A DNA stretch of 64,000 nt from Candidatus Yanofskybacteria bacterium RIFCSPHIGHO2_01_FULL_44_24 (lineage in GTDB: Bacteria; Patescibacteriota; Minisyncoccia; 2-02-FULL-40-12; GWA2-44-9). Below the pieces are notes generated by a model, which was not told the DNA's origin, made no database searches, and saw only the letters and a program-made list of their open reading frames with translations. Of the stretch, positions 41,261-63,321 are shown one piece after another; positions within the stretch are counted from its first letter, which is position 1, and every line of letters starts with the position of its first letter. The stretch covers positions 23,684 to 87,683 of the forward strand of contig MGJK01000015.1 in assembly GCA_001794215.1 (NCBI GenBank), read 5' to 3'. A program made the position numbers and the translations under genes.

Positions 41261-41396
41261 AATGCTTTAATGATACCAAAAACAGCTAAAAAAGCCATGA
41301 AATAGGCTTGTTGGAGTGTCTTGACAAATAGGTATAATGTATGCTATAATGTTAAGGTAGGGTAGACATTGGGCCCCAGGGCCCGGGAGAAGAACG

Positions 41397-41729
41397 ATGA
41401 ACCTTCGCAACAAGCTCGTAGTCGATCTTTCGTCGGCCGGATCGCCCAAGCTCGCCCGTCTGGAATACCCGAATGGCTGGGTCGGCGTTGAGACGATTCC
41501 GCAGGACATCCTCAAGGACTTTCGTCCGGCCGAGGCCGAGGCAGCCTACCGGGACGACTCTCGTCGAACCGACGAGAACCTCCGCTACGTCCAGTTCGGA
41601 CAGGCCTTCAAAGCCCCGAACGAACGCGGACAGGTGATCACCAAGACGGACAAGCGCGACGGGATGTGGATCCCGGCGTGGCTCCTGAAGGCCGCCGAGG
41701 AAGACAAGGCGGCTAAGAAGGCCGTCTAA
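41397..41729 (+). CDS. Hypothetical protein encoded in a GC-rich island
   Basis: 110 aa; RBS GGGAGAAG; upstream TTGACA-N18-TATAAT; downstream hairpin/terminator; about 60% GC. Confidence 0.45.
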   Translation: MNLRNKLVVDLSSAGSPKLARLEYPNGWVGVETIPQDILKDFRPAEAEAAYRDDSRRTDENLRYVQFGQAFKAPNERGQVITKTDKRDGMWIPAWLLKAAEEDKAAKKAV

Positions 41730-41745
41730 CACGCACCGCAACTAC

Positions 41746-41797
41746 CCGGTCCCGCTTCTTAACCGAAGCGGGACCGGCGAAAGCGGTGTCTTTTTGT
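41746..41797 (+). terminator. Intrinsic terminator-like hairpin
   Basis: ccggtcccgcttc-ttaacc-gaagcgggaccgg … TCTTTTTG. Confidence 0.45.
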
Positions 41798-41813
41798 TTA
41801 AACATCGAACGGA

Positions 41814-42040
41814 GCCTTAACCCGCAATGAAGGGATTTACGGAAAATCATAACGAAGCCTTGGCTTATGAGAGGATTTGCGGAAGCTGACCAAGCTCAGA
41901 GCGAGGGTTTAGCCGATGAAGGGATTTACGGAGCTCGACCGGAACGAGTAAAAGATGAAATTTCAGCAGAAATTTACATCGTGCCCTTCATTGGCTAAAC
42001 CCGAGTAAAAGTTTATGGCGTGCCCCGAACGGGTTAGGGC
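41814..42040. repeat. Iteron-like direct repeats (17-nt motif ATGARRGGATTTRCGGA in 3 copies, plus repeated CGAGTAAAAG and TAAACCCG words) with mini-ORFs MKGFTE…
   Basis: Direct reading of 41827-41843, 41867-41883 and 41916-41932. Confidence 0.6.
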
Positions 42041-42046
42041 GGAGCG

Positions 42047-42505
42047 CTATTTCACCTCTATAATCTTATACTCCGCCGTTCCCTTGGGCGTGAGAACTTT
42101 TACCGTATCTCCTTTTTTGTGGCCGAGAAAAGCGCTTCCAAGCGGAGATTCGTTTGAGATAAAGCCTTTCAGCGGATCCGACTCTGCGGCGCCGACAATG
42201 ACAAAATGCTGAGTTCCGTTTTTTGATTCAACAGTAACGCTCGAACCGACTTCAACCATTCCCTTGCCGGTACTGCCGGTGAATATCTTCGCATTTTCTA
42301 AGGTTTCTTTGATCTCTTCGATCCGGCCCTCGTTGACGGCCTGCGCTTCCTTAGCGCTGTCGAAAGCGGCATTTTCGGATATATCTCCCTCCTCTTTGGC
42401 CTCCTTGAGGCGCCGGGCAATATCCGGTCTTAAAACATTGAGCCTTTCCTCCAGCTCATTTTTTAATTTTTCCAAACCCTCTTTACTGAAATATTGGTTG
42501 TCCAC
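42047..42505 (-). CDS. greA: Transcription elongation factor GreA
   Basis: N-terminal coiled-coil plus C-terminal FKBP-like domain. Confidence 0.9.
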   Translation of the reverse strand: MDNQYFSKEGLEKLKNELEERLNVLRPDIARRLKEAKEEGDISENAAFDSAKEAQAVNEGRIEEIKETLENAKIFTGSTGKGMVEVGSSVTVESKNGTQHFVIVGAAESDPLKGFISNESPLGSAFLGHKKGDTVKVLTPKGTAEYKIIEVK

Positions 42506-52876: not shown

Positions 52877-53413
52877 AAAAAAAAGCTGGGGGGGGGTTAC
52901 CTCCAGCGTTGATTCGACCGCGGGAGGGATAGAGCTTCGCGCTCTCCCTCCCGCCCCGCGGCCACTGTCGTCTCTTTCTGTTTCTGCTCGCCCGATGATC
53001 GGCGGGTCGCCGCGCCGCTGTCCCGCGCCGCAGGCGACCCGCCCTTCTTTCTTTCTCCGATCTCCGATGGATCTTTTGTTAGAGCTTTGCCCCCGATCAG
53101 GCACTCAACCTGACCGGAGAACGGTCGTCGCTTGAGTGGCGACGGGAGGAAGCCTTGCGCACATCGGCGCTTGGCCCTTGCCTCCAGCTCTGCGATGGCC
53201 CCATCCGGGCACCACCCCTTAACCGCCCTCAACGCCCGGGGATCGCGGCCGCGTTCCGGACACCAAAGAATTAGAGATCACGGGCAGGTCCGCCTGCTTT
53301 TCGAGACAGGCGGACCTCGAGGTTGGCCATTTCGGCGTTACCCCACTGCCCCCGAAAAACCGCTTAAAAAGTAATCTTTCAGGGACAGTGTCAGCTCAAA
53401 GAACGTATATTAC
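52877..53413 (-). ncRNA. Candidate large structured ncRNA of about 535 nt (GC about 62%), bracketed by a consensus promoter and an intrinsic terminator; class unresolved (weak RNase P RNA-like words)
   Basis: Minus-strand TTGACA (53447-53442) -N16- TATAAT (53425-53420); terminator GCTGGAGG…CCAGC plus T8 at 52907-52877; no credible ORF; words GGGCAG..GGUAACGCC, GGAGGCAAGGGCCAAG and AAGGGGUGGUGCC resemble RNase P conserved regions, but the P4 strands were not found. Confidence 0.5.
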
Positions 53414-53419
53414 CCTCTC

Positions 53420-53447
53420 ATTATAGCAAATCTACAGAATCTGTCAA
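53420..53447 (-). promoter_or_regulatory. Consensus sigma70 promoter (TTGACA-N16-TATAAT) for the 535-nt RNA; the -35 is embedded in a perfect 11-bp inverted repeat (53436-53465)
   Basis: Direct reading: agaatctgtca-agccccg-ctgacagattct. Confidence 0.6.
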
Positions 53448-58166: not shown

Positions 58167-58238
58167 GATTTTCTCCATTTCATTATATCATTTTTAAGGA
58201 GGGTAGTCCGACAAGTCGGACTACCCCATGTTTGAGGC

Positions 58239-58946
58239 CTACCCCTTTGCAAGCCCCATTTCTCTCACGATTTCCGGAAGCGGAATATCCGTCTCCTTGT
58301 GGAGCTGGACAGCCGCCATAAGATCCTTGAGAGAGATCGGCATCAAGGTGTTAATCACTACCGGATCGGTAATGCCTAAACCTAAGAGCAGAGCGGCGGA
58401 TGTCGATGGCCCGCCTATCAAGAACGGAGCCATCAGAGAGATGTAAAGCGGCGACCCGCCGACATCACTGGGAAGCGTGCCGAGAAAATCGGCCACCCTT
58501 TCGATGATTGCACCGCGACTCGTCTCATCGCCCATGATTACGGCATGGCACGCCGCTACCCTGACGATCAGTTCCATCTCTTCCCTTGAACCCTCGAAGA
58601 TTGTGGCATCCTTGCAGCCGAGAACTACCGTCTCGACAACAACCTTGGTTTCAGAGAGATCAGTTACGCTACCTCCGTAGCCAAGTTCGTAAACCACCAT
58701 GCTCTCAAGAGCCGCCATGAGCGGCCGCCGACAACCGCCGATGTCTCTCTTCATTCCTTGACCGTTGTCTCGCAAATTAGTTTGCCGGATCAACTTACTC
58801 ACCTCCTTTTTAAAGTTCCCTCTTTTAATGACCCGGGATCTGTCATCTACCGATTGAAAGCTCGGCAGAAAGCATGTTGTAGAACCCGCTCCGGAATTAC
58901 TGGAGCGGACCCCAATCGACCTCGACGCCAAGCTCCTTGGCGGCAA
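58239..58946 (-). CDS. Hypothetical protein (the true start is probably internal, about 58790 TTG or 58754 ATG); GC about 52%
   Basis: ORF track; AAGGAGG upstream of an internal start; no family recognised. Confidence 0.45.
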   Translation of the reverse strand: MPPRSLASRSIGVRSSNSGAGSTTCFLPSFQSVDDRSRVIKRGNFKKEVSKLIRQTNLRDNGQGMKRDIGGCRRPLMAALESMVVYELGYGGSVTDLSETKVVVETVVLGCKDATIFEGSREEMELIVRVAACHAVIMGDETSRGAIIERVADFLGTLPSDVGGSPLYISLMAPFLIGGPSTSAALLLGLGITDPVVINTLMPISLKDLMAAVQLHKETDIPLPEIVREMGLAKG

Positions 58947-59154
58947 GCTCAGTGAGTTCGCGCTTCTCCGCCTCGGAAAGCTGTTTGAGCTCCTCCGAGA
59001 AGTCTTTGAGCGCCTGCCCCGGCTTGTAGCCGAAGTAGTCGCGCAGAATTTTCATTGCTCCCGTTTTCTGGGCCATAGCGGCCTCCTGTTTCTGTTTTAA
59101 AAAGACAGTACTTTCCCGCCGATCAAAGGCCCGTCGGGTTGCCTGTTGTTTCAA
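58897..59154 (-). CDS. Hypothetical small protein (probable start MAQKTG at about 59076)
   Basis: ORF preceded by a 270-nt structured leader containing element copy A and X1. Confidence 0.35.
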   Translation of the reverse strand: MKQQATRRAFDRRESTVFLKQKQEAAMAQKTGAMKILRDYFGYKPGQALKDFSEELKQLSEAEKRELTELAAKELGVEVDWGPLQ

Positions 59155-59260
59155 AGAACAGGAGAGAAGCCTTAAAGTCCGGCTGTACAGTGGCCTTCAT
59201 CGTCACATACGGACGCCTCGCCTCATCGTACGTATTGCGCCGGTTTGCTTGTTTACTCCT

Positions 59261-59350
59261 CTCCCGCCAAAACCATCAGCTACCCTTCATGATATATCAT
59301 AAAGGGTATTGAAAACTTTGGTGGGAGTCCCGACCGACGCAAGGCCGGGA
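59261..59350. repeat. Double-hairpin element, copy A (CTCCCGCCAAAA…TTTTGGTGGGAG + TCCCGACC…GGCCGGGA)
   Basis: Direct reading; the inner segment carries a nested palindrome cccttcatgatatatcataaaggg. Confidence 0.7.
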
Positions 59351-59353
59351 CGT

Positions 59354-59407
59354 ACAGATTCTGTTGCCAGGCTCTGTAAGGCCCCGTCAGCCCAAAGCTG
59401 ACAGATT
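59354..59407. repeat. Conserved 54-nt element X1 (acagattctgttgccaggctctgtaaggccccgtcagcccaaagctgacagatt)
   Basis: Near-identical to X2 at 60800-60853; contains hairpin gtcagc-ccaaa-gctgac. Confidence 0.75.
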
Positions 59408-59423
59408 AACCGGGTCACAACGA

Positions 59424-59816
59424 TTAGAAGTGTCCGAGGTAGCCGTAGAAGTTGGCTACTTCGGCAAAGTACTCGTCAATACCGGGGATGCCATCCTCTT
59501 CAAGAGGCCGGCCTTCGGTATCAACGGTGCAACTCTCACCGACAGAATAACGGAAACGTTTTCCGGTTCCGTCGGTGCCGACGTAAAATTCGTGAGACGC
59601 GTTATGACCGACGCGCCAGAACTTAACGCCGTTGACGACGTGAGGCTTGTCAATCCACGGAGTATGCGGATTGTTGCCTTTGCCCCAATTGTACATGAGA
59701 TTCAACAGAAGAATCTCCTCCACAACAGGGTCGCCGTTAGAGTTTTCTGAAGCAACTTTTCTGAGTCGCTCCATAGCTCTTTCTTCTCGCTGTTCTTCCC
59801 GCTCTTCTTTTGTCAT
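59424..59816 (-). CDS. Hypothetical protein (130 aa; trimmed from the longer 233-aa ORF, which would span element copy B)
   Basis: ATG about 59816, 13 nt downstream of the element-B 3' arm GGTGGGAG; GC about 52%. Confidence 0.4.
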   Translation of the reverse strand: MTKEEREEQREERAMERLRKVASENSNGDPVVEEILLLNLMYNWGKGNNPHTPWIDKPHVVNGVKFWRVGHNASHEFYVGTDGTGKRFRYSVGESCTVDTEGRPLEEDGIPGIDEYFAEVANFYGYLGHF

Positions 59817-59828
59817 AGGACTGGGGAT

Positions 59829-59896
59829 TTCTCCCACCGAAGCCTCATAGACGCAGAAGTATGAGACTTCGGTGGGAGGCCGACATAAGTCGGCCG
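59829..59896. repeat. Double-hairpin element, copy B
   Basis: ctcccaccgaagcctcatagacgcagaagtatgagacttcggtgggag + ggccgacataagtcggcc. Confidence 0.75.
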
Positions 59897-60028
59897 GATT
59901 TTTACACTCAGGACGAGTAACCTGTTTTAGCAGAACAGGAACCGCAATCGGCGGGATGGATGTGAGTTGGAAGGACTCACGCTCCTTCTGTTGCCAGGCC
60001 GTCGCTCGGCCCCGCGTCGCAAGATAGA

Positions 60029-60340
60029 TCAGCCGGCAAGGCTGATCCGAAGACCCAGTAAGTCGCTCAAACGAGAAATTGCCTCGTCCGGCTTCCAACC
60101 GCAGTCCTCGAACACCAGGAAGCACGCCTCACGCAAATTGCGGGAAGTCCAGCGATATTTCACGCTGTTTCCAACAAGTTGCATGCGGCGGTCAGCCAGG
60201 GCTATCCTGCTTCTGCACGAATCACAGAACGGATTGCAAAGTCCGGCGACCTCGAACTTGACGGTTTTACCGTCAATGAGAATCCGCCGACCAGTCATCC
60301 ATCCTGCGACATGCACATACAGGCAAGTCTGCTCCATCAT
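60029..60340 (-). CDS. Hypothetical Cys-rich protein (104 aa from MMEQTC…; CNPFCDSC)
   Basis: RBS GGAGG-N4-ATG at 60340; the upstream part of the track ORF overlaps element C. Confidence 0.4.
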   Translation of the reverse strand: MMEQTCLYVHVAGWMTGRRILIDGKTVKFEVAGLCNPFCDSCRSRIALADRRMQLVGNSVKYRWTSRNLREACFLVFEDCGWKPDEAISRLSDLLGLRISLAG

Positions 60341-60442
60341 TTCACCTCCTCGATTCTGAAATTCCCCAGAATAACCAACCAGATGTGCCTTCGCACAAAA
60401 TGGCCAGTAAATTAAGGGTACATTTTTTTGAAAGAATGGGAT

Positions 60443-60513
60443 TTCTCCCACCGAAGCCTCATAGACGCAGAACTATGAGACTTCGGTGGGAGGCCGAGTC
60501 AGAGACTCAGCCG
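60443..60513. repeat. Double-hairpin element, copy C
   Basis: 49 of 50 identical to copy B over hairpin 1; hairpin 2 gccgagtc-agag-actcagc. Confidence 0.75.
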
Positions 60514-60592
60514 GTTGATTTGTTTACGCCGAAAACCATTCAGCGGATGCATTATCTGTTCCCGGGACTGCGATCACACCCCGGTGCAACCT

Positions 60593-60775
60593 TTATTTTG
60601 CACAGATAGGCAAAGTAGGGATACGAACGACCAATTCGCCATCAACCACGAAGCTGAAGAGTTCGCCGTTAATATTGACAGACCATTCATTTCCCAAAGA
60701 GCAGACACTGACTTCTACTCCGATTGCTGCCTTAAGAATCTCTTCGATAAGACTCTCTAATATATTTTTCTCCAT
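60593..60775 (-). CDS. Hypothetical 60-aa protein
   Basis: RBS GAGGAGAG; ATG at 60775, immediately downstream (on the minus strand) of X2. Confidence 0.4.
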   Translation of the reverse strand: MEKNILESLIEEILKAAIGVEVSVCSLGNEWSVNINGELFSFVVDGELVVRIPTLPICAK

Positions 60776-60799
60776 CTCTCCTCAAAGAACTCGGGACAT

Positions 60800-60853
60800 G
60801 CAGATTCTGTTGCCAGGCTCTGTAGGGCCCCGTCAGCCCAAAGCTGACAGATT
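60800..60853. repeat. Conserved 54-nt element X2
   Basis: 52 of 54 identical to X1. Confidence 0.75.
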
Positions 60854-60864
60854 GGGTCCAACTC

Positions 60865-61149
60865 CTATTTGAAGAAGTTGGCGAACCATCGCGGCTCGAG
60901 GATCACTACACCCTTTTCGGACATCGCCTCTTTCATGGCGAGAATTTCGTCCTTGAAGGCGCGCTTCACCTCATCGGCGTTCATTGATTCGACTTTGCGG
61001 TAGAATCCCTGAACGGCCACCGAGATGTTCAACGACTCCTGGGGTGTAACTCCAGGAGCGACCCATGAAAAGAGCGGTTTGCTCTTCATGAGAAGGTTGG
61101 GAGATGGTTCTACGCGAGCCACAGGGTTCCATGACACGTCCTGATACAT
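60865..61149 (-). CDS. Hypothetical protein (about 95 aa from MYQDVSW…)
   Basis: ORF track 60865..61182 uses a TTG inside element E; the ATG at about 61149 lies 23 nt after the element-E 3' arm. Confidence 0.4.
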   Translation of the reverse strand: MYQDVSWNPVARVEPSPNLLMKSKPLFSWVAPGVTPQESLNISVAVQGFYRKVESMNADEVKRAFKDEILAMKEAMSEKGVVILEPRWFANFFK

Positions 61150-61171
61150 AGATTTTGCGCTACTTCTCCGC

Positions 61172-61230
61172 TCTCCCACCAAAATCTCTTTAAAGAAACT
61201 TTGGTGGGAGGCCGAGTTTTACACTCGGCC
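61172..61230. repeat. Double-hairpin element, copy E
   Basis: ctcccaccaaaatctctttaaagaaactttggtgggag + ggccgagttttacactcggcc. Confidence 0.7.
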
Positions 61231-61374
61231 GTAGAGGTGGAAGTGAAAGACAGGGTCATAGCGAACAGCGAGCAACCGTCCGCTTCAGGCTTGTAACCCC
61301 TTCTGTCTTGCTCAAGGACAGCAGACTCACTACTCCGTCATGATCGACGGCGAGTCTGTTTTGCCGCCCTTCAC

Positions 61375-61464
61375 CCCCACCAAAACCTTGTATTCGCATG
61401 TGCGTATTTGTAACGCTATTCGCATACAAAACTTTGGTGGGGGTCCCGGCATAAGGCCGGGACT
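61375..61464. repeat. Double-hairpin element, copy D
   Basis: cccccaccaaaa…ttttggtggggg + tcccggcataaggccggga; the inner segment carries TATTCGCAYA words. Confidence 0.7.
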
Positions 61465-61471
61465 GGATGCG

Positions 61472-61861
61472 CTATAAGTAGCGCTTGAAGGCTTGGCGGG
61501 CGGCCTGCTGGCGCTGGACCCGACGCTGCTCCATCTCAACTACCGTCTGCTGGTAGCGATAGAAGCGGAGTCCGGCTTTGCGGCCGAGGGTCGCACAACG
61601 ACCACAGTGGATGTGGTCGGCCAGATCCTTGACCGAGGGCCAACGCCCGACGACCTTGCGGATGGTCGACAGGGCCGGCACCCAGGCCTCGGACTGAGCC
61701 ATCTTCGTCTGACACGGCTTGCCGGGTTTCGGCTCGCCATGACATCCGAAGGGCTTGTCCTGAGCCTTGTCGAGGGACTTCTCCGCCGCCGCTGTCACAA
61801 TCTGATCATTCATACACACCTCCAAAAATGAAAGAACTGCTGACCGAAAAACAATAATCAA
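61472..61861 (-). CDS. Hypothetical GC-rich (about 60%) zinc-ribbon-like protein
   Basis: C…C…HCGRC; Arg/Gln-rich C-terminus; composition foreign to the host. Confidence 0.4.
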   Translation of the reverse strand: MIIVFRSAVLSFLEVCMNDQIVTAAAEKSLDKAQDKPFGCHGEPKPGKPCQTKMAQSEAWVPALSTIRKVVGRWPSVKDLADHIHCGRCATLGRKAGLRFYRYQQTVVEMEQRRVQRQQAARQAFKRYL

Positions 61862-62267
61862 TGGAGCTCAAGGTATAAGCTTGTTGCCCCTTTCTGAAAC
61901 AATATGTGAAACATGCCTATTCGCACATATTGCCTCAGAAAGAGGCCGGAGCTTTGATTGTGGGGGCCGCGTTAATTATCTAGACGGCTGATACCACTAT
62001 ATGCTCAAAGCTCCACCGAGCTGAGCTCGGTCAATCCTCTAACTTTGTCTGGCCGGCAACTTTCGATGCCGATTTAACTTAACTGCCAGTATTATACTCA
62101 AATGAAATAATTTGTCAAGCCCCTCGGACAAAAAATAAAAAAATGTTCAAAGTAACGGCTTAAAGCCTTGCTTTTTTGAACATGGCAGGTGTCATGATAA
62201 CCAATAAAATAACCGTGATTGTTTTTTTACAAGAAAAAATAAACGCGATCATTTTTGTCACCCTTTC

Positions 62268-62296
62268 TTGACAAAAATTACGGTAAGGCGTATAAT
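62268..62296 (+). promoter_or_regulatory. Consensus sigma70 promoter TTGACA-N17-TATAAT
   Basis: Direct reading: 62268-62273 and 62291-62296. Confidence 0.6.
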
Positions 62297-62302
62297 AGAC
62301 AT

Positions 62303-62547
62303 GTAGCCTGAGGGCAGGCTACCCTCGACAAGAGGAACCAGCGGGAGAAACGCAGGCCTGTTCCCCGTCGACAGGAGATCGGATCTCAAGCGCGAAAAAG
62401 GGATAGGCCAAATGCCTCCTGCCAAAGGAGGTCCAACGTGGGCTCGAGATGAATTCAATTTTAAGAGCTCAAGAGAACTTTAGAAATTAGTGGTGAAGCG
62501 AGTCATGGGTTTCGGCCGTCCACCCTTTCAGGGGGATGGCCTTTTTG
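62303..62547 (+). ncRNA. Orphan structured sRNA candidate of about 245 nt (GC about 52%), between a consensus promoter and an intrinsic terminator
   Basis: Multiple hairpins (guagccug-aggg-caggcuac; gagauc-g-gaucuc; ccucc-ugccaaa-ggagg); terminator ggccgtccaccc…gggggatggcc plus T5; runs into the convergent TrmB gene, with no downstream + gene. Confidence 0.45.
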
Positions 62548-62562
62548 TTTCCCAAGAGAGAA

Positions 62563-63321
62563 TTATATCTTGCCGGAGATATTCCAAATCAAGTTGAGCA
62601 GGTTCCGGAAAGAATTTGCGATTTCTTGGTGCCTGATCATGGCACCGGAAATCTTTCCCTTCAAAGCCGCGATAGCGACAATATCATCATAGACGGTTAT
62701 GTCTACATTAAAAGGCATTTTATCCGGGGAAATATATCGAGCTTCCCGCAACATAGCGGGATCGCTTTCTTTAAATACCGGCCCCTTTGAAGATGTGTAT
62801 ATGGAGCGCGAATGAATACCCTTTTTAACCCTTTTGTCAGAATACGATTCCGAGTCTGGAGAATCAGGAAAAAGCTTAATCACATCATCAAGAGAAGTAA
62901 TACCTATGATTTTCTTTTCTTTGGCCTTTAGAAATTCCCGCTCCATCCTCATCAACCCCTCTTTTCCCTCGAAAAATCTTACTTCAGGCTTTTGATCGCC
63001 CAAACTGAAAACCGTCATAAGCTCGGGCATCAGTTTATTAAGGGTTTCTTTCTTGCCTTCCCAATCTCTCCTTTCCCGTTCAATAACAGACTCTAAGTAT
63101 TCAGGCGACTCAGCTACGAATAGCTGTTTCTTGCCTTTATTTTGAGTGCTTACTAAGCCGAGTTTTTTCAGAGATTCAACCTGGACATAAGCAGTAGGCC
63201 GGTTAATCCCGGCTTTGGCCGATATTTCAAGCATTGTGGCCGGACCAAGCTCAAGCATGGCCAAATACACCTTAGCTTCGTTGTCTGACAAACCGAGATT
63301 TTTTAGCTGGTTAACAAGCAT
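62563..63321 (-). CDS. TrmB-family transcriptional regulator
   Basis: N-terminal TrmB HTH (LGLSDNEAKVYLAMLELGPATMLEISAKAGINRPTAY) plus a C-terminal sugar-sensor-like domain. Confidence 0.8.
   Translation of the reverse strand: MLVNQLKNLGLSDNEAKVYLAMLELGPATMLEISAKAGINRPTAYVQVESLKKLGLVSTQNKGKKQLFVAESPEYLESVIERERRDWEGKKETLNKLMPELMTVFSLGDQKPEVRFFEGKEGLMRMEREFLKAKEKKIIGITSLDDVIKLFPDSPDSESYSDKRVKKGIHSRSIYTSSKGPVFKESDPAMLREARYISPDKMPFNVDITVYDDIVAIAALKGKISGAMIRHQEIANSFRNLLNLIWNISGKI

Follow-up and report, generated by a model that had tools for sequence, protein, structure and literature searches.

Positions 62268 to 62547 of a 64,000-nucleotide (nt) stretch of Candidatus Yanofskybacteria bacterium RIFCSPHIGHO2_01_FULL_44_24 (contig MGJK01000015.1, positions 23,684 to 87,683; hereafter the window) very probably hold a real, conserved and independent RNA gene, which converges on a gene for a TrmB-like regulator. 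The best-conserved element of this RNA is a Shine-Dalgarno sequence (SD) followed by an open reading frame (ORF) of only three to five codons, hereafter the mini-ORF, and we conclude that this regulatory RNA is probably translated and not purely non-coding. We see an even chance that it acts as a translation-gated riboregulator, i.e., a free-standing RNA in which a switch between SD and anti-SD pairings gates the mini-ORF. To our knowledge, hardly anything is known of regulation by RNA in Patescibacteria (Candidate Phyla Radiation), for which this locus provides two new conserved RNA elements, a small RNA (sRNA) with a putatively gated mini-ORF and, on the divergent strand, a structured leader supported by covariation.

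The RNA as a Transcription Unit

The RNA promoter agrees with the sigma-70 consensus at all 12 positions, with TTGACA at 62268-62273 and TATAAT at 62291-62296 separated by a 17-nt spacer; the 64-kb window contains only four other perfect promoters. Transcription would start near 62303. The 248-nt RNA at 62300-62547 was predicted to fold at −99.7 kcal/mol, compared with −78.6 ± 4.8 kcal/mol for dinucleotide shuffles (z = −4.36), and none of 200 shuffles folded as well. At its 3′ end, the hairpin GGCCGTCCACCC-TTTCA-GGGGGATGGCC (62514-62541) and the T5 run that follows (62542-62546) form a putative intrinsic terminator, which a simple terminator scan missed because the stem is bulged but which is present in the minimum-free-energy fold. 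No + strand gene was found between 62547 and the end of the window, i.e., there is no same-strand coding gene directly downstream of the kind that a riboswitch or other cis-regulatory 5′ leader would precede, and the terminator faces the TrmB-like gene here and in all homologs. In these respects the original prediction was borne out: a consensus promoter, a highly structured transcript, a hairpin plus T5 terminator, convergence on a TrmB regulator gene, and a context that is not that of a riboswitch leader. With its own promoter and its own intrinsic terminator, both kept in related genomes, the RNA has the make-up of an independent sRNA gene. Its elements are listed in Table 1 with those of the surrounding locus.

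Table 1. Features of the RNA gene and of the adjoining locus, in window coordinates (SD1, SD2, first and second SD-like sequence; bp, base pairs; aa, amino acids).
Feature	Position	Strand	Basis or remark
Palindrome TTTTTGTCA-N7-TTGACAAAAA over the −35 box of the RNA promoter	62251-62276		TTGTC-N7-11-GACAA three times in the window vs. 0.17 expected
Sigma-70-type promoter, TTGACA-N17-TATAAT	62268-62296	+	Consensus match at 12/12 positions
P1, 5′-terminal hairpin GUAGCCUG-AGGG-CAGGCUAC	62303-62322	+	17/18 homologs
P2, short hairpin CCUC-GACAA-GAGG	62323-62335	+	4-7 bp GC-rich hairpin after P1 in homologs
SD1-like box GCGGGAG (family GCRGGAGG)	62341-62347	+	After P2 in all homologs
Middle hairpin domain, variable in length and sequence	62355-62409	+	Predicted folds
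Anti-SD GCCUCCU	62414-62420	+	CCUCC nearly invariant in the family
SD2 AGGAGGU	62426-62432	+	GGAGG 4-9 nt before the conserved start codon in all homologs
Mini-ORF GUG GGC UCG AGA UGA (fMet-Gly-Ser-Arg, stop)	62438-62452	+	Frame of 3-5 codons in 21/21 members
Variable 3′ region	62453-62513	+	60-190 nt in the family, poorly conserved even among close relatives
Putative intrinsic terminator, 12-bp bulged hairpin plus U5	62514-62547	+	Ends 16 nt short of the stop codon of the TrmB-like gene
TrmB-family winged-helix regulator, 252 aa	62563-63321	-	Pfam TrmB E = 5.6e-17; syntenic anchor of the locus
Second perfect promoter, TTGACA-N16-TATAAT	62118-62091	-	Divergent from the RNA promoter; conserved in related loci
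Leader motif 1	61948-62014	-	12-bp outer stem, GGG/CCC helix, GCCG/CGGC hairpin, near-invariant 13-nt loop UCUAGAUAAUNANC
Leader hairpin 1b, GGCCUCUUUCUGAGG...UUUCAGAAAGGGGC	61886-61946	-	Inverted repeat I2; caatatgtg/cacatattg at the apex
First gene after the leader, 113-aa conserved hypothetical protein	61472-61813	-	33 protein clusters, 57-87% identity
GC-rich island (51-54%), small orphan ORFs between paired-hairpin elements	58200-61470	-	Composition; repeat families D1-D5 and I1-I7

Conservation in Related Genomes

Homologs were collected from 66 TrmB-orthologue loci of species-representative genomes, from the contigs of the closest orthologues and from 29 metagenome loci carrying the leader motif (individual loci are designated here by L numbers). 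A search by nhmmer with the RNA alone returned nothing beyond identical copies; with a longer query, the whole intergenic region was alignable in the nearest relatives. From those alignments we derived a composite pattern (CCUCC, 3-16 nt, GGAGG, 3-10 nt, RUG, GG, and an ORF of at most eight codons), which occurred once in the 64-kb window and gave 18 matches when both strands of ~0.8 Mb of TrmB-gene loci were searched. Of these, 16 (that of the window included) lay on the strand opposite to the TrmB-like gene, 70-430 nt past its end, and in independent metagenome contigs the pattern was found 400-470 nt from leader motif 1.

At least 20 distinct homologs with a consensus-like promoter upstream thus occupy the same position, convergent with a TrmB-like gene, in Yanofskybacteria-like, Sungbacteria-like and Doudnabacteria-like metagenome-assembled genomes (MAGs) of ultrasmall bacteria from groundwater, and the RNA is not the orphan that it had been taken for. 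In all of them, a promoter comparable to that of the window stands at the same place and is followed by the structured body, and each ends in a GC-rich hairpin and U run that adjoin the stop codon of the TrmB-like gene at a distance of 10-20 nt. It is architecture that is conserved, in the sense of element order, and not sequence: position, promoter, order of the elements and terminator were kept among genomes whose TrmB proteins are only 55-77% identical.

The family is previously undescribed and absent from RNA databases, in keeping with the earlier failure to recognize any RNA family by eye. A scan of the whole window with Rfam 15 at gathering thresholds found only a tRNA-Gln at 587-657, and a permissive scan (E ≤ 10) of 61800-62620 returned only hairpin-type microRNA noise, the best hit at 24.7 bits against a gathering threshold of 51. 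Membership in the Rfam families, including 6S, SRP, tmRNA, RNase P, riboswitches, raiA, ROOL, GOLLD and HEARO, was not found, nor did ARAGORN detect a tmRNA; at either Rfam threshold, no match was obtained for the RNA itself, its divergent leader, the island or the 34-kb region described below. Searches of phage, plasmid and viral collections gave no match to the RNA, and a full-text literature search found no description of the family. A viral origin was considered and rejected: there was no protein match, no phage or plasmid record matched, and two DNA pattern matches inside a giant-virus gene were attributable to chance.

Element Order and Mini-ORF

From 5′ to 3′, the homologs repeat the series of elements given in Table 1. 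P1 is an uninterrupted helix of 6-11 bp that begins 5-9 nt past the −10 box in 17/18 homologs, and the many mutually compensating versions of its stem include GCUGGG/CCCGGC, GCAGUCUG/CAGACUGC, GUAGCCUG/CAGGCUAC, AUAGCC/GGCUGU and GACUGGGU/ACCCGGUC. P2 takes forms such as GGGGC/GCCCC, CUCCG/CGGAG and CCCUG/CAGGG in homologs, the positional homology between subtypes not being established. The spacing between SD1 and anti-SD ranges from ~15 to >100 nt, i.e., about seven-fold.

The mini-ORF was compared in 21 members. It begins with AUG in 17 and GUG in four, has a glycine codon in second position (GGU in 10, GGC in eight, GGA in three) and ends in UAA (14), UGA (five) or UAG (two). It is three to five codons long in 21/21, whereas the other two frames stay open for 19-20 codons on average, and the spacing from SD2 to the start codon, 4-9 nt, is not confined to multiples of three. 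Divergent members likewise keep an SD and an ORF of three to five codons, encoding MGV in L089, and MFGA and MFSI in L103. Variation of the start codon, variation at the glycine wobble position and the use of all three stop codons together give the mini-ORF the sequence signature of translation. The only ORF noticed originally, one of 13 codons (ATG at 62450 to TAG at 62491), does exist; it is not conserved, and the conserved frame is the four-codon ORF at 62438-62452. Given this mini-ORF and an additional upstream ORF of 20-43 codons in most relatives, the description of the transcript as an ORF-poor sRNA no longer fits.

Predicted Switch and Proposed Mechanism

In the minimum-free-energy fold of the full-length window RNA (−99.7 kcal/mol), the anti-SD pairs with SD2. 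When SD2 and the start codon are held single-stranded, its partner becomes the SD1-like box, in a helix that encloses the middle domain (−93.7 kcal/mol), and the same pairing is found in the minimum-free-energy fold of the nascent RNA ending at 62425, in which SD2 has not yet been made. Similar alternatives were predicted across the family: all five anti-SD bases are paired with SD2 in the minimum-free-energy fold of 15/20 homologs, the anti-SD of nascent or SD2-open RNA is paired with an upstream GGAGG-like box in ~17/20, and the closed state is favored by 3-15 kcal/mol.

Conservation, synteny, element order and the codon pattern of the mini-ORF are observed directly; from the energy models we infer a three-way switch and its timing. 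The 5′-terminal hairpin P1 would be protective, and the anti-SD CCUCCU would choose between the SD-like box GCGGGAG and the real SD, AGGAGG, of the four-codon ORF. During transcription, the SD1-like box would capture the anti-SD at a time when the real SD is not yet made, leaving the mini-ORF briefly accessible, and the finished RNA would then relax to the more stable anti-SD:SD2 form, closing the mini-ORF. In most relatives, where SD1 is the SD of a leader ORF that runs through the anti-SD, translation of the two ORFs could be coupled or mutually exclusive, and ribosome binding at SD1 or translation of the leader ORF might toggle the same switch. The clade of the window has kept the SD1 box and lost the start codon of the leader ORF, and the box can act there only as an RNA partner. 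Our guess at the output is ribosome occupancy of the mini-ORF, with an effect in cis both on the RNA, through its stability or 3′ end, and on the TrmB-like gene; the hairpin shared with that gene has no U tract on the TrmB strand, which makes antisense overlap plausible. Action through the peptide would be less likely. If the mini-ORF is indeed the functional unit, the RNA would be a natural, conserved minigene regulator, both states of which are defined by three short boxes, and a translational-attenuation switch without a downstream gene would be unusual.

Several points weigh against this riboregulator. The RNA start, terminator function and translation are all read from sequence, and the switch was predicted from thermodynamics. 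As an SD and its anti-SD are complementary by definition, part of the agreement between homologs is built in. The homologs cluster in few clades, and counts such as 21/21 therefore overstate their independence. Those from the metagenome scan had been selected with an ORF filter of at most eight codons; the first 15 homologs were gathered without an ORF-length filter, and all of these have mini-ORFs of at most eight codons. MAFFT and RNAalifold found no pairs in the 5′ domain of the RNA owing to misalignment of the two P1 subtypes, and a covariance model of one subtype (R1) recovered the other at only 9-16 bits. With these failures of alignment and covariance model, support for the RNA body does not extend to a formal covariation statistic, and that for P1 comes from helices found sequence by sequence. 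Glycine at codon 2 is not universal, as the MFGA and MFSI mini-ORFs of L103 illustrate. Finally, generic combinations of SD and mini-ORF in the window are at background (10 found, 9.7 expected), so that the evidence lies in conservation across genomes and not in local statistics.

Alternative Explanations

We consider it unlikely that the RNA is a purely non-coding, trans-acting sRNA, in which CCUCCUG would be the seed that occludes the SDs of targets (e.g., the island genes), the GGAGG boxes would be self-inhibitory and the mini-ORF incidental. It would account for CCUCC being the most invariant sequence of the family, a strong promoter with an intrinsic terminator is a layout typical of sRNAs, and the GGAGG-like boxes of the divergent leader are complementary in some loci (8-nt CCCUCCUG in L011 and L087). 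However, both predicted states place the anti-SD inside a stem and not in a loop that would display it, and an RNA matches its own leader no better than a non-cognate one (longest complementary stretch, means of 8.8 vs. 8.3 nt). A start codon at SD distance, the wobble of the GGN codon and a stop after three to five codons would also be left unexplained.

A second alternative, which we regard as quite improbable, starts from the upstream ORF. In most relatives, a start codon 5-11 nt after SD1 opens a frame of 20-43 codons that ends at the mini-ORF stop in 11 of ~15; in three it stops 1 nt short of the mini-ORF start (UGA-N-AUG), and in L090 the long upstream ORF is in another frame. The locus might accordingly be a gene for a small protein (20-43 aa, e.g., MLSKSRSERP...RQEGEMGAG in relatives), of which the window copy has lost its start and is decaying or repurposed. 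In favor of a protein, the mini-ORF frame contains about half as many upstream stops as the others (24 vs. 44 and 46), and the serine at codon 2 or 3 varies synonymously (UCG, UCU, UCC, UCA). Yet in four members (the window, L010, L076 and L079) SD1 is followed by no AUG, GUG or UUG, and all other elements (P1, P2, SD1, anti-SD, SD2 and mini-ORF) are retained. The C-terminus is not conserved as protein, given the clade whose ORF stops 1 nt before the mini-ORF and the different frame of L090, and upstream ORFs from different clades run through the block GGAGGGUGAGAUGGG in two different frames; combined with an SD2 spacing that ignores multiples of three, this places the constraint on SD2 and the start codon, not on the end of a protein. 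The peptides could not be aligned between subgroups, and a search with a 40-aa peptide of a relative against 5.8 billion proteins found nothing related, which is weak evidence as small ORFs are rarely called.

The principal role of the RNA could instead lie at the 3′ end of the TrmB-like gene, as a cis-antisense RNA, a transcription-collision partner or a terminator module to which the internal features are secondary. The invariant convergence and the short distance (10-20 nt) of the terminator from the TrmB-like stop codon in every homolog fit such a role, and the shared terminator hairpin has no U tract after it when read on the strand of the TrmB-like gene, so that TrmB transcripts may plausibly read through antisense to the RNA. 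This explanation, to which we give little credence, leaves the 5′ architecture and the mini-ORF unaccounted for, and many TrmB orthologues (loci L031-L075) have no RNA. A chance pair of promoter and terminator in a functionless spacer is hardly credible in view of the conservation of position, promoter, element order and terminator at 55-77% TrmB identity and the fold z of −4.36.

Divergent Leader and Promoter Palindromes

The ~400 bp upstream of the RNA had been described as structured non-coding DNA with perfect inverted repeats that might bind the TrmB-like regulator. The repeats are real: a pair of 23-nt arms at 61886-61908 and 61924-61946 is 87% complementary, and atgttcaaa/tttgaacat lies at ~62143-62184. 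The region itself is, by its promoter and leader, a second transcription unit, divergent from the RNA, with a perfect promoter of its own and a structured leader that is supported by covariation. For motif 1, RNAalifold predicted 20 pairs from 20 sequences, and 15 of these pairs show compensatory double changes; the paired fraction of cells was 91.3%, compared with 41-51% when partners were slid, and 0/500 shuffles reached the observed values. In the adjoining hairpin 1b, homologous leaders conserve the base (CCUCUUUC...GAAAGGGG) and vary at the apex. As the first of the proposed TrmB sites is the apex of this conserved RNA hairpin in the 5′ leader of the divergent unit, next to a strongly covarying motif, the assignment of these repeats to TrmB binding loses its footing.

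Better candidates for TrmB operators would be the TGTCA-N7-TTGACA palindromes that overlap the −35 boxes of both the RNA and the leader promoters. TGTC stands 6-10 nt upstream of the −35 box in 16/20 homologous RNA promoters, the palindrome is kept at 16/18 leader promoters, and TGTCA occurs 7 nt upstream of TTGACA at all five perfect promoters of the window. The same feature accompanies 32% of all TTGACA hexamers in related loci (L010-L112), against an estimated ~2% by chance, which weakens the case for an operator specific to TrmB; the palindrome may rather belong to the promoter architecture of the lineage as a whole or serve as a binding site for a global regulator.

Base pairing between RNA and leader was also considered and rejected, because duplex prediction gave meaningless global duplexes and exact complementarity did not exceed that of non-cognate pairs. 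A correlation between the mini-ORF start (A/G) and CCCA(U/C) in the leader, seen in 15/16 loci, reduces to about one phylogenetic event.

Two further observations concern this intergenic region. Between the divergent promoters, at 62158-62178, there is a small hairpin, GGCTTAAAGCC, followed by TTGCTTTTTT; L019 and L103 have hairpins like it. Transcription that runs on from the TrmB-like gene could be halted here, ahead of the leader promoter. In a related MAG (L012, 6241-6420, +), a motif-1-like hairpin, GCCGCCUAGUAAUAUAACGCGGC, precedes an anti-SD/SD hairpin and an AUG GGC GGC UUG UAA mini-ORF in what appears to be one transcript, and a second mini-ORF (MGGR) occupies the usual position on the opposite strand. 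The two RNA modules can thus be fused in one transcript.

Neighboring Genes and GC-Rich Island

Over 11.4 kb, a contig from a groundwater metagenome (ENA ERZ27254752, k141_457625) has the same sequence as the window, which also matches the NCBI MAG contig MGKL01000013.1 except for one 80-nt indel. The bulk of the window has 41-47% G+C and carries housekeeping genes (MurB, LysS, GreA, PBP2, RRF, MurG). The TrmB-like protein has 411 homologs at E ≤ 1e-20 and resembles TrmB and TrmBL2 structures over N-terminal residues 5-142 only; its scores with the NCBIfam TrmB models are far under their cut-offs, and sugar sensing by this protein is therefore not established.

Downstream of the divergent leader, the 113-aa protein had no Pfam, NCBIfam or PHROG match. 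At the DNA level, its gene matched L013, L018-L020, L022 and L076 with nhmmer E-values of 5e-42 to 8e-68, although TrmB identity to these genomes is 56-60% (L013, L018-L020, L022) and 76% (L076). Such strong matches despite diverged TrmB proteins, together with the variable distance of the gene from the leader, suggest horizontal exchange of island genes. The island is ~3.6 kb long, and its ORFs had no family matches. Within the 64 kb, TTYGGTGGK occurs only in the island, and it is found again in the equivalent islands of related loci.

A two-hairpin element is repeated five times behind small ORFs of the island (59264-59407, 59824-59899, 60438-60513, 61172-61231 and 61373-61463). Read on the − strand, the element consists of a GC-rich hairpin of 6-7 bp and then a long hairpin with the base YCCCACCRAAG...CTTYGGTGGGRG; the same base is found in the islands of related genomes, and no U tract follows the hairpins. 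Two 62-nt repeats (59346-59407 and 60792-60853) are 95% identical. An integron reading of the island was rejected, as these hairpins do not fit the attC consensus (R″ RYYYAAC, R′ GTTRRRY). No integrase adjoins the island, where the RNA gene and the TrmB-like gene take up the place expected for intI; this search did not extend to the rest of the genome. Strain-variable cassettes, suggested by differing gene calls in L001 and L002, were likewise dismissed, since the DNA is identical.

Other Perfect Promoters in the Window

The three remaining perfect promoters form part of a wider pattern, in which each perfect-consensus promoter in the 64 kb appears to drive a GC-rich, highly structured or orphan transcript among AT-rich housekeeping genes. 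The third (TTGACA-N16-TATAAT, −35 box at 34908, − strand, with an upstream TGTC) stands directly after the murB stop codon. Its predicted transcript (34030-34908) is ~830 nt long, has 51% G+C, is ORF-poor and highly structured (z = −7.4), and ends in the terminator GCCCGTGG...CCACGGGCGTTTT; it has no Rfam match and contains no tRNA or tmRNA, and it has an SD of its own with an AUG GGG AUC CGA UAA mini-ORF.

The fourth promoter (−35 box at 53447, − strand) carries the palindrome AATCTGTCA-N7-TTGACAGATT and precedes a GC-rich transcript of ~520 nt (52895-53447; z = −8.3; end GCUGGAGG...CCCCAGCUUUUUUUU) upstream of the ribosome-recycling-factor gene. The NCBI assembly is without 80 nt at window positions 53002-53095, inside a long GC hairpin of this transcript.

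The fifth lies between lysS and greA (41321-41800, +) and is followed by the leader GUUAAGGUAGGG..., a GC-rich ORF of 110 aa (41397-41729) that has no Pfam match, and a terminator. In the non-coding DNA upstream of greA (41800-42050), ATGAAGGGATTTACGGA occurs twice in direct orientation and once as a partial inverted copy, CCCTTCATTGGC, and GAGTAAAAG occurs twice. The 5′ ends at 34.9 kb (GGUAAGGUAG) and 41.3 kb (GUUAAGGUAG) and that of the 62.1-kb leader (CAGUUAAGUUA) are alike.

Comparison with Known Systems

A broader and more doubtful proposal is that the mini-ORF RNA, the divergent leader with its invariant 13-nt loop and the TrmB-like regulator together constitute an undescribed patescibacterial control hub heading a GC-rich, horizontally exchanged island that consists of orphan genes, in which the fMet-Gly-X(-X) ORF of three to five codons would sense, e.g., translational or ribosome status in cells that depend on a host. 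If so, it would amount to a translational attenuator without a gene, acting as a free-standing regulator.

The arrangement recalls the translational attenuators of inducible erm and cat resistance genes (ermC, cat-86), in which an SD1 with a short leader ORF is combined with an SD2-sequestering hairpin and an alternative partner, and ribosome position or co-transcriptional folding decides between them. Alternative pairings of the anti-SD are likewise predicted for the window and 20 homologs. In contrast to erm and cat, the RNA has no gene downstream: in place of a full-length gene, SD2 serves only three to five codons in every member, after which transcription would terminate. The clade of the window also has no start codon for a leader ORF, and there is no recognizable stalling motif.

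Competition of a long-range 5′ element for the sequence that blocks an SD is shared with hok/sok mRNAs and the maturation gene of MS2, and here, too, the open state is predicted only for the nascent RNA and the final fold is closed. Unlike hok/sok, the RNA contains no hydrophobic toxin ORF (20-60 aa), the ORFs of relatives being basic and hydrophilic (e.g., KKRR-rich), and no opposite-strand promoter was found within it, which sets it apart from type I toxin-antitoxin systems.

Dual-function sRNAs (RNAIII/hld, SgrS/SgrT, SR1/SR1P) are, like the RNA gene described here, independent sRNA-like genes with their own promoter and terminator that contain an ORF, but theirs encode active peptides of 26-43 aa, whereas the universally conserved ORF here has three to five codons. 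The E-peptide, a pentapeptide mini-gene of 23S rRNA, offers an ORF of four to six codons whose SD is normally buried in structure; it differs in its sequence (MRMLT-like vs. an MG-x-x consensus), lies inside rRNA and acts in macrolide resistance.

The bar minigenes of phage lambda have no gating switch, and the near-constant glycine at codon 2 is a feature of the RNA family described here. Their effect, seen in pth-defective hosts, is one of ribosome and peptidyl-tRNA handling and not of the peptide. Common to both is an otherwise non-coding transcript that carries a strong SD and, behind it, a start codon with only a few codons before the stop, and in the RNA described here this combination, with the SD at proper spacing and at most six sense codons, is conserved across the family.

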